Assembly (NCBI GenBank): GCA_964618805.1
Contig: CAZUBM010000004.1
Span: forward strand, 32,001-96,000
Length of the DNA: 64,000 bases
Source of the DNA: an uncultured Nitrososphaerota archaeon
GTDB lineage: Archaea; Korarchaeota; Korarchaeia; Korarchaeales; Korarchaeaceae
Reading direction: 5' to 3'
Made by a program: the position numbers and the translations under genes. The number at the start of each line of letters is the position of its first letter. Within the stretch, counting starts at the first letter, position 1. A model generated the notes under the pieces. The model saw nothing but the letters and a program-made list of their open reading frames with translations, made no database searches and was not told the origin of the DNA. Of the stretch, positions 12,708 through 14,804 are shown in pieces.

Positions 12708-14804
12708 ATGGTAAACATCACTAAGGTCCTGAACTCTTTCATCTCTTGGATGGAACTGAGGGGCTATAGGCCTGGGACCATAAGGCAATACTCTTATGAC
12801 GCTAAAAGGTTCTTGCTATGGCTAAAGAAGGATCCAACAAAAGTTGATGAACAAGAAATCTCAGAATATCTGCTTAAGATAAAATCTGAGAGGAGCCTTA
12901 GCAATAGCACAATGCTGAGAAGGATAGCCTCTCTAAGGACATTCTACGAGTTTTTAGTAGATCAAGGCATGATGCAGACTAATCCTGTAACGATAAGGAG
13001 GCCGAGAGTTAGAAGGAAGCTACCAAACATCCTTTCAAGGGAGGAGGTAGAAAGGCTTATCTTAGCTGGGAGAAATGAGAGAGATAGGCTTCTTCTCAGG
13101 CTTTTATATGCTACTGGAGCTAGAGTAAGCGAGATATCATCCTTAAAATGGGAAGATGTTAATGTAAAGGAGAAAACCGCTATTATAAGGGGAGGAAAAG
13201 GAGGAAAAGACAGGATTGTTCTTTTTGACGATGTAACAGCAAGAGAACTCGCGAAGTATAAGAGCAAACACGGAGGTCAGGGCAGGATATTTCCTCTTTC
13301 TCCAAGGACCATCCAAAGGATTGTTAAAATGGCAGCTGCCAGAGCAGGACTGCACAAAGAAGTTCATCCCCACACCTTGCGTCACTGCCTTCATCCAGAA
13401 ACTAGAGTACTCACTTCAAATGGATTTCTACCGGCTAAATTATTGTTCTTCTTTAATCATGAGGTTCTTACAATTGATCCTTCTGATCACTCCTGGAAGG
13501 CATGCAAAGTTTCTCAAAAATTACATCACATCGCCGATAGACTTCTTTCGATTTGGGCAGGAGGAAGAGAGCTTATATGCACACCTGAGCACACGGTTTT
13601 TGTCCTTAGGAAAGGAAGGATCGTAGAAATTCAAGCTGGCGAGTTAAGCGTAGGTGATTACATTGCTGGAGTGGGGAGAATACCATTTAATACTGGCAGA
13701 CGGTATCTGGATGCAGATCTCTGGCAATTAATTGGATATTATGTAGGAGATGGAGCCTTATGTGAAGAACGCAGAGTAGTTAGGCTTTGCGATAAACAGA
13801 AGGAAATCGCAGAGCATTACAAGAAGATTGCTGAGAACTATGGTTTTAACTCATCTATCAAGAAGATTGGAAATAGCTACGAGGTACACATCCATAGTGT
13901 CACATTTATGGAGTTGCTCAAAACGTTGCTACTTGATAAGGTCTCTTCTCAAAGAAGGGTACCTGTTAAGCTATTTGAAGCAACGGAAGAAGAGAAGTGG
14001 GCGTTTATCTCTGGATTCTTGGATGCTGAGGGCTGGCAGAGGAAAGATGGCGTAATAGCCTTTGCTAACAGCAACAAAGAACTTCTGAAGGACATACAAA
14101 TGTTGCTGTTGAGTACAGGAGTGCATGCAAATTTGGAAAAGAGGATAAGAAAAGTTAAGCTGCCAGGTGGGAAAATCATTGAGAACAATAAAATCTATTA
14201 CCTCTTGATTTGCAGAGGGGAGGATATAAACAAATTCGTTGAGAATTCGAGATCTATTAAGGATCTTTTCAAAATAAGGAGGTTAAGAGTTCTTTCTCAG
14301 AAGAACCAAGTAATTCCAGTTCACGACCTACTGAAAGACATTTACAGGAGAAGGAAAGAGGAAGGAAAGCCTGTAGGTACGCTCTGGAGATATAGTAAGA
14401 TTCCTCCCTCGAGAGATAAGTTAAGAGAGCTTCTGAAAATGCTAGAAGACGAGCCTGAATACGAGTTGTTGAAGAAATTATGTGAGCAGGATGTGGTGTG
14501 GCTAAAGGTTAACAATATTGAGAGGAGCGGTGGATATTCCGAATACTTGAAAAATAAGGAGGTCAAGATCACGAGATTTACAGTTTACGACTTCGAGGTG
14601 GATCAAACTAACACATTGGTGACAGATGGTATATTAAGCCATAATTCGATGGCAACCCACCTTCTCGAGAGTGGGGCAGACCTGAGGGCAATCCAGGAAC
14701 TCTTAGGTCACGCTTCACTAAGCACAACTCAGATATACACCCACGTTTCCAGGGAACATTTGAAAAGGGAGTATAAGAAGTTATGGGAGAATAAGAAAGG
14801 ATAA
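12708..14804 (+). CDS. xerA: XerA-type tyrosine recombinase, intein-containing (about 278 aa after splicing)
   Basis: N-terminal core-binding domain; [58 protein letters not shown]. Confidence 0.92.
13386..14645 (+). mobile_element. Intein (420 aa) with LAGLIDADG homing endonuclease inside XerA
   Basis: [13 protein letters not shown]...[10 protein letters not shown]...LIGYYVGDG...[10 protein letters not shown]...VYDFEV...[11 protein letters not shown]. Confidence 0.96.

Follow-up and report, generated by a model that had tools for sequence, protein, structure and literature searches.

How can a tyrosine recombinase be produced from a gene whose active-site coding region is interrupted by 420 additional codons, and how did the insert get there? 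These questions are raised by xerA in a 64,000-nucleotide stretch (hereafter the window) of contig CAZUBM010000004.1, which belongs to the genome of an uncultured archaeon of the Korarchaeaceae (G000; 2.18 Mb, 62 contigs, 93.7% complete). One open frame on the forward strand, 12708..14804, runs uninterrupted for 698 codons plus stop (a 2094-nucleotide frame) and encodes a 698-residue XerA precursor. We consider it probable, at roughly 80%, that the insert is a canonical class 1 intein with a two-motif LAGLIDADG homing endonuclease, a selfish element that resides in frame in the single chromosomal xerA gene and was acquired recently by lateral homing.

An intein at the XerA active site

Three parts can be read in the precursor gene, all on the forward strand. 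The N-terminal extein (N-extein, 226 residues, 12708..13385) comprises a SAM-like N-terminal domain and the catalytic part with Arg-I, Lys and HxxR, as judged from Pfam (Phage_int_SAM_4 at residues 8-86; Phage_integrase profile positions 3-134) and from alignment with Pyrococcus abyssi XerA (PDB entry 4a8e). The intein follows (420 residues, 13386..14645), a class 1 element that begins with Cys1 and ends with His-Asn, and it is recognized by Pfam and NCBIfam matches, by an AlphaFold2 model and by its absence in congeners. The C-terminal extein (C-extein, 52 residues, 14646..14801) begins with Ser+1, reads SMATHLL...LGH...IYTHV, matches the remainder of the Phage_integrase profile (positions 135-171) and likewise aligns with 4a8e. 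Cys1 is encoded by TGC (13386-13388) directly after a flank reading HPHTLRH/C, where the slash marks the junction, the terminal His-Asn by CAT AAT (14640-14645), and Ser+1 by TCG (14646-14648). Because these junction codons enclose 1260 nucleotides, the insert amounts to 420 residues, and the exteins to 226 + 52 = 278 residues. The coordinates, motifs and lengths given in the original prediction, an earlier reading of this DNA from its letters alone, all proved correct. Its expectation of a normal spliced product was also borne out, as splicing in silico yields a 278-residue XerA, the length of the orthologues in congeners that lack the intein.

The insert splits the Phage_integrase profile exactly at 134/135, and a search of PDB sequences places the insertion point between residues 230 and 231 of 4a8e (N-extein aligned to residues 13-230, E = 7e-28; C-extein to residues 231-275, E = 5e-14). 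The catalytic motifs are legible in the exteins and align with 4a8e, namely ATGARVSE (Arg-I), GKGGKDR (Lys), HPHTLRH, LGH and IYTH; we take R-K-HxxR-H-Y to have the catalytic roles that we recall from the literature on this family. The intein follows the His after Arg-II (HxxRH) and so separates R-K-HxxR from the His and Tyr that complete the active site, the very position that had been predicted between HxxR and the second His and Tyr. Despite the interruption, the precursor passes the archaeal XerA equivalog model NF040815 with 246.9 bits (cut-off 220); when the genome is searched with this model in six frames, the gene is hit as two separate halves, at 191.9 and 60.2 bits.

An assembly or binning artefact, in which a foreign intein is wrongly joined into xerA, would produce the same picture, and in one congener (G001) the assembly of the allele does indeed break within the intein, leaving two contigs. 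Reads that fail to support the junctions had been named in the original prediction as a refutation; the contigs compared here support the junctions. A 4155-nucleotide contig from run X1, possibly the source of the assembly, spans 12509-15100 with zero differences. The comparison covered four runs, three of which (X3, X4 and X7) come from three other studies. Contigs from these bridge the N-terminal junction (X4, 13035-13995; X7, 13175-13485) and the C-terminal junction (X3, 14594-14800 with 3 differences; X4, 14034-14788; X7, 14550-14796), and among the joints listed for the four runs none skips 13386-14645. In one X7 contig the alignment ends at 13384, and the 79 letters that remain might derive from an empty-site allele. 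A second intein-plus population, more diverged than the first, is present in run X1. Since one or both joins are spanned in each of the three other studies, the junctions are not a quirk of one assembly. The same architecture is moreover found in 45 database proteins, described below. An artefact is refuted as far as contigs can show, and we regard it as exceedingly improbable.

Splicing and endonuclease motifs

Within the insert, Pfam recognizes Intein_splicing (E = 2e-14) and, in two stretches, LAGLIDADG_3 (E = 3.6e-21), and the NCBIfam model TIGR01443 (intein_Cterm) scores 24.5 bits against a cut-off of 15.6. Block B can be read as TPEH (Thr66 and His69; 13581..13592), with Cys65 directly before it. 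The first LAGLIDADG motif, LIGYYVGDG with the acidic residue Asp122, lies at 13728..13754, and the second, ISGFLDAEG with Glu215, at 14007..14033; blocks F and G, VYDFEV...TDGILSHN, occupy 14583..14645. To gauge conservation, we used a set of 81 unique complete inteins from the same recombinase site. Cys1, Thr/Ser66, His69, Asp402, His419 and Asn420 are each present in all 81, Cys65 is kept in 76, and the acidic LAGLIDADG residues are found in 78 (Asp122) and 81 (Glu/Asp215). The element is a canonical class 1 intein, and its homing endonuclease is apparently intact.

A structure of the intein predicted by AlphaFold2 from an alignment of nine family inteins (mean predicted local distance difference test score 87, predicted template modeling score 0.87) has a Hint fold and matches solved inteins over its full length. 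The best Foldseek matches of this model in the PDB are TliVMA (7qss; E = 6e-22, template modeling (TM) score 0.70), PI-PfuI (1dq3) and 2cw7, followed by PI-SceI, and the free-standing LAGLIDADG enzymes I-DmoI and I-Tsp061I match the endonuclease core over ~190-207 columns (E = 1.7e-7 to ~2e-6). After this core, the model places a helical region at intein residues ~305-367 (14298..14486; helices 313-326, 331-337, 343-352 and 359-367), which could possibly add extra DNA contacts.

We propose that xerA is translated as a 698-residue precursor, from which the Hint domain would excise itself and ligate the exteins into the 278-residue XerA. The chemistry would be of the standard type, with an N-S acyl shift at Cys1, attack by Ser+1, and cyclization of Asn420 aided by His419. 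Recombinase activity is expected only after splicing, because the R-K-H-R and His-Tyr parts lie 420 residues apart in the precursor. The freed intein would cut intein-less xerA alleles site-specifically and be copied into them by double-strand-break repair, and lateral homing of this kind would have brought the element in well after the two host species diverged.

If the insert instead failed to splice, xerA would be disrupted, and chromosome dimers would be resolved by another recombinase or by no Xer system at all. A second full tyrosine recombinase is indeed present in the genome, a 401-residue integrase on contig C35 (L014, 77..1282, reverse strand). However, its XerA model score of 128.8 bits is short of the cut-off of 220, and a zinc-ribbon-like Cys-x2-Cys pair is readable near the C-terminus of its translation, a feature more suggestive of an integrase from a mobile element than of a Xer protein; its locus could be an integrated element. 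The xerA precursor is the only XerA-grade match in this 93.7% complete genome. Its residues Cys1, Thr66/His69, His419-Asn420 and Ser+1 are intact, its frame is open, and its exteins remain under strong purifying selection (nonsynonymous divergence, dN, of 0.081 against a saturated synonymous divergence, dS, in the comparison with G001). We therefore consider a non-splicing insert very unlikely.

Empty sites and probable recent lateral homing

The xerA intein occurs in 2 of 41 related genomes searched (G000 counted), and the carriers are G000 and G001 only. At genus level this is 2 of 5 genomes, at family level 2 of 25. Uninterrupted xerA with the sequence HPHTLRHS[ILM]ATHLL is present in the remaining members of the genus, G002, G003 and G004, and in seven further relatives; the XerA of intein-less congeners is 278 residues long and reads HPHTLRHS[IL]ATHLL with no gap at the junction. 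The G002 and G004 proteins read HPHTLRHSIATHLL across this point. On both sides, their DNA runs colinear with that of the window (76-79% identity), and what it lacks is exactly 13385/6-14643/5. Mapping such alleles on a tree, as the original prediction had proposed, succeeded in part: intein-plus and intein-minus alleles do occur within one genus, but the extein tree leaves that genus as an unresolved polytomy.

This distribution bears on the speculative idea that the host now uses the intein as a conditional switch. Cases of conditional splicing are established among archaeal and mycobacterial inteins, and redox state, temperature or DNA might likewise gate splicing here, and with it XerA activity and chromosome-dimer resolution, possibly through a disulfide at Cys1. 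The splitting of the active site by the insertion would suit such a role, as would the invariant Cys1 and the frequent second cysteine, Cys65, before block B. However, the intein was not found in three of the five congeners or in any of the 20 other family genomes searched, so that the element is evidently dispensable to the host. The pattern of divergence presented below is, moreover, that of a selfish element of recent arrival, and we regard a regulatory role as unlikely.

We compared the window with G001 codon by codon. DNA identity is 77.7% in the N-extein (527 of 678 bases) and 77.1% in the C-extein (118 of 153 bases), and neighbouring genes are 76-77% identical. In contrast, the intein is 94.1% identical (1186 of 1260 bases; Fisher p = 1.7e-28), and the switch in identity is sharp, falling within a few bases of each junction. 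By the Nei-Gojobori method, synonymous divergence is ~2.6 (saturated) for the N-extein and 0.24 for the intein; the C-extein has no dS value, as the correction fails at saturation. With a dN/dS ratio of 0.086 over the whole intein and of 0.10 over the endonuclease part, the element is under purifying selection. The contrast recurs in a third allele, that of P0001, which a single contig covers in full: protein identity is 85.6% in the extein and 96% in the intein. As a control, the intein in the TIP49/RuvB-like gene of the window was compared with its counterpart in G003. Here the intein is 72.9% and the extein 80.4% identical, the reverse of the xerA pattern and the normal order for vertical descent.

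Given an intein at 94.1% identity between exteins at 77%, together with the reversed order in the TIP49 control, the simplest interpretation is that the xerA intein moved between lineages long after their hosts diverged. Recent lateral homing would imply in turn that the endonuclease is or recently was active, and mobility into empty alleles would indicate that it was working at the time of transfer. Many inteins end as immobile, splicing-only elements, and this one might analogously be old and vertically inherited, with splicing alone kept and an endonuclease that is decaying or dead. A composition like that of the host and the lack of a visible co-conversion tract would be compatible with such a history. 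The same history is hard to square with an intein that is so much better preserved than its exteins and flanks, with the low dN/dS of the endonuclease part, with acidic LAGLIDADG residues that are retained here and in 78 or all 81 of the relatives, and with the empty sites of three of five congeners. An immobile, inherited intein is in our estimation quite unlikely.

Several points nevertheless weigh against recent lateral acquisition of a functional intein. The guanine-plus-cytosine content of the intein (40.4%) is near that of the N-extein (42.9%) and of the window (43.5%), and its value at third codon positions is likewise not usefully different from that of the exteins, so that there is no compositional sign of foreign origin. 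No clear co-conversion tract is seen at the junctions in the comparison with G001; identity extends only 2 nucleotides upstream and 11 nucleotides downstream, less than would be expected of classical homing. A sister relationship of the two carriers is neither supported nor contradicted by the extein tree. In G001 the allele is split over two contigs, each of which ends within the intein, with an overlap of 41 identical codons; the comparison thus depends on an assembly break, which may itself reflect several populations sharing the intein. Finally, we infer splicing, DNA cleavage and inactivity of the precursor from sequence.

A family of inteins at the same recombinase site

A word-indexed protein search returned 65 hits, 45 of which are intein-bearing tyrosine recombinases. 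All 45 carry the intein at the identical xRH/C...HN/S site, with intein lengths of 410-433 residues. A wider scan of one genome per prokaryote species, queried with the intein alignment, gave 54 loci, comprising 46 same-site recombinase inteins (in 45 genes) and 8 inteins of other proteins. By record names, 37 of the 45 genes are bacterial, 32 of them bearing candidate phyla radiation (CPR)/Patescibacteria-type names, and 8 are archaeal (Woesearchaeota, Nanoarchaeota, Iainarchaeum, two other archaea, and one metagenome-assembled genome of Thermoproteota). Inteins of this family are 29-47% identical to the window intein, and their host recombinases resemble XerA or bacterial XerC/D, or are divergent, with XerA model scores of only 51-84 bits. 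In one CPR-type example (L036), the +1 residue is Cys instead of Ser (HN/CFATDLL). Four records titled Gammaproteobacteria or Chloroflexi (L025, L031, L033 and L055) have exteins that look CPR-like or XerA-like, which may point to wrongly labelled bins or to genuine transfer.

Among 2.9 million IMG/VR contigs, one also carries a same-site example, a 719-residue Xer-like recombinase (L069, 5266..7425, forward strand) on a contig of 93.9 kb. Its neighbours are small open reading frames without a Pfam match and a module of replication type, with a KaiC/DnaB-like ATPase and a DnaD/HTH_36 protein, and the contig may be a mobile element carrying the intein.

These searches qualify two suggestions of the original prediction. 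Xer recombinases had been put forward as unfamiliar intein hosts; the host is not unique, given the same-site intein in 45 of the 65 hits and in 45 species-representative genes, yet we found no paper that describes it. The endonuclease had also been thought capable of reaching the integrase genes of mobile elements. The presence of the family in XerA, XerC/D-like and divergent recombinases and on an IMG/VR contig speaks for this, and two further results temper it. In a quick intein tree, the window intein nests among those of divergent 'SR.T' recombinases (Shimodaira-Hasegawa-like approximate likelihood ratio support 96) and not among the XerA inteins of DPANN archaea; the window and 'SR.T' inteins are 42-47% identical and the exteins 24-32%. 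Jumps between recombinase subfamilies are suggested, but an approximately unbiased (AU) test on the extein tree, in which branches are long, did not reject a common clade of those rows (p = 0.437), and we do not claim such a jump because the test leaves co-inheritance unrejected. The C35 integrase of G000 reads FRH/SRATHL at the corresponding position, and its DNA matches the xerA junction at 29 of 48 bases, versus 36-42 of 48 for the empty sites of congeners.

Tentatively, a single intein lineage might use the HxxRH/S codons, which both domains conserve, as a homing site across domains, in XerC/D-like proteins of CPR bacteria, in DPANN archaea, in XerA of Korarchaeia-like Thermoproteota, and in divergent or element-borne integrases, with element integrases as possible vectors. 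The lineage would still be homing in hydrothermal populations, and dimer resolution would depend on splicing wherever the intein is inserted. We consider this broader scenario less likely than not.

Relation to known inteins and XerA proteins

In mechanism and architecture, the element is an ordinary archaeal LAGLIDADG intein; it is the class of its host gene that we have not found described in print. TliVMA (7qss), PI-PfuI (1dq3), 2cw7 ('intein homing endonuclease II') and, more distantly, PI-SceI likewise have a Hint domain interrupted by a two-motif LAGLIDADG endonuclease. These solved inteins have Cys1, TxxH, HN and a +1 nucleophile in common with the xerA intein and match its model with E values of 6e-22 to 2e-16 and TM scores of 0.57-0.70, at a sequence identity of just 15-19%. 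According to the entry titles, the host of 7qss and 7qst is VMA, whereas the xerA intein resides in a tyrosine recombinase and has HxxRH/S codons as its target. Among the other hosts of solved inteins are ribonucleotide reductase and DNA polymerase.

The RecA inteins of mycobacteria and the RadA inteins of Thermococcales also sit in the catalytic core of a recombination enzyme whose activity depends on splicing. RecA and RadA, however, are ATP-dependent strand-exchange proteins, an enzyme class unrelated to tyrosine recombinases, and the insertion site is a different one. In PMC11409957, the RadA intein is discussed as regulatory. The studied XerA proteins of P. abyssi (4a8e) and Thermoplasma acidophilum (5hxy) match the exteins over their full length and have no intein, in contrast to the 420 residues inserted in the active site here. 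Same-site recombinase inteins elsewhere share the identical site, but their hosts are bacterial XerC/D-like, DPANN XerA-like or divergent proteins, and only one closely related lineage (P0001, G001) is held in common with the window.

Full-text literature searches, whose coverage does not extend to the supplementary host lists of surveys or to InBase, found no paper describing an intein in Xer or any other tyrosine recombinase; where the two subjects were mentioned together, the passages inspected proved unrelated. The main text of one intein survey (PMC4760082) contains no occurrence of 'integrase', 'xer' or 'tyrosine', while its supplementary host tables could hold an entry. Some Joint Genome Institute (JGI) records are already named automatically as 'site-specific recombinase XerD/intein/homing endonuclease'.

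Genomic setting and other inteins of the genome

The xerA gene is flanked on one side by a PQQ-like beta-propeller gene and on the other by an Asparaginase_2 gene and then a glutamyl-tRNA synthetase-like open reading frame, all three on the opposite strand. With such neighbours, the context is that of an ordinary chromosomal gene, and the flanking genes are the same in G002 and G004. The Asparaginase_2 gene (14815..15759, reverse strand) sits between xerA and the synthetase-like gene in G000, G002 and G004. No aligned counterpart is present at this place in G001 and G003, where the synthetase gene lies ~25-140 nucleotides beyond xerA. Because of this difference in Asparaginase_2 placement, the two intein carriers G000 and G001 differ in local gene order. 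On contig C35, the integrase gene adjoins an open reading frame near the contig end that reads as Orc1/Cdc6-like from its translation alone.

The TIP49/RuvB-like AAA+ ATPase gene of the window (967 residues, 1343..4246, reverse strand) likewise contains an intein, in which a LAGLIDADG domain and a helix-turn-helix region are present; the gene is intein-less in G002 and intein-plus in G003. An open reading frame at 3..1301 (reverse strand), which continues past the window start, has an Intein_splicing match and is part of a 1479-residue frame that holds two such matches (G000:C4:31400-31726 and 32696-32926). The genome as a whole is rich in inteins, with 16 Intein_splicing matches that fall in 8 large open frames of contigs C4, C8, C11, C17 and C38.

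Implications

Inteins are found preferentially at active sites, above all in enzymes of replication, recombination and repair, and the position in xerA fits this known bias. As far as literature searches show, a tyrosine recombinase host adds an enzyme class to the known intein hosts. Practical uses are conceivable too, for the endonuclease as a rare cutter that is thermostable and for the intein in protein splicing applications. Close relatives with plus and minus alleles, combined with the signature of a recent transfer, would offer defined natural substrates for the study of homing, of splicing at high temperature and of what the element costs its host in chromosome segregation. The insertion motif is among the most conserved peptides of bacterial, archaeal and mobile-element recombinases, and the xerA intein and its relatives may thus provide a natural system for examining homing range across families and domains.

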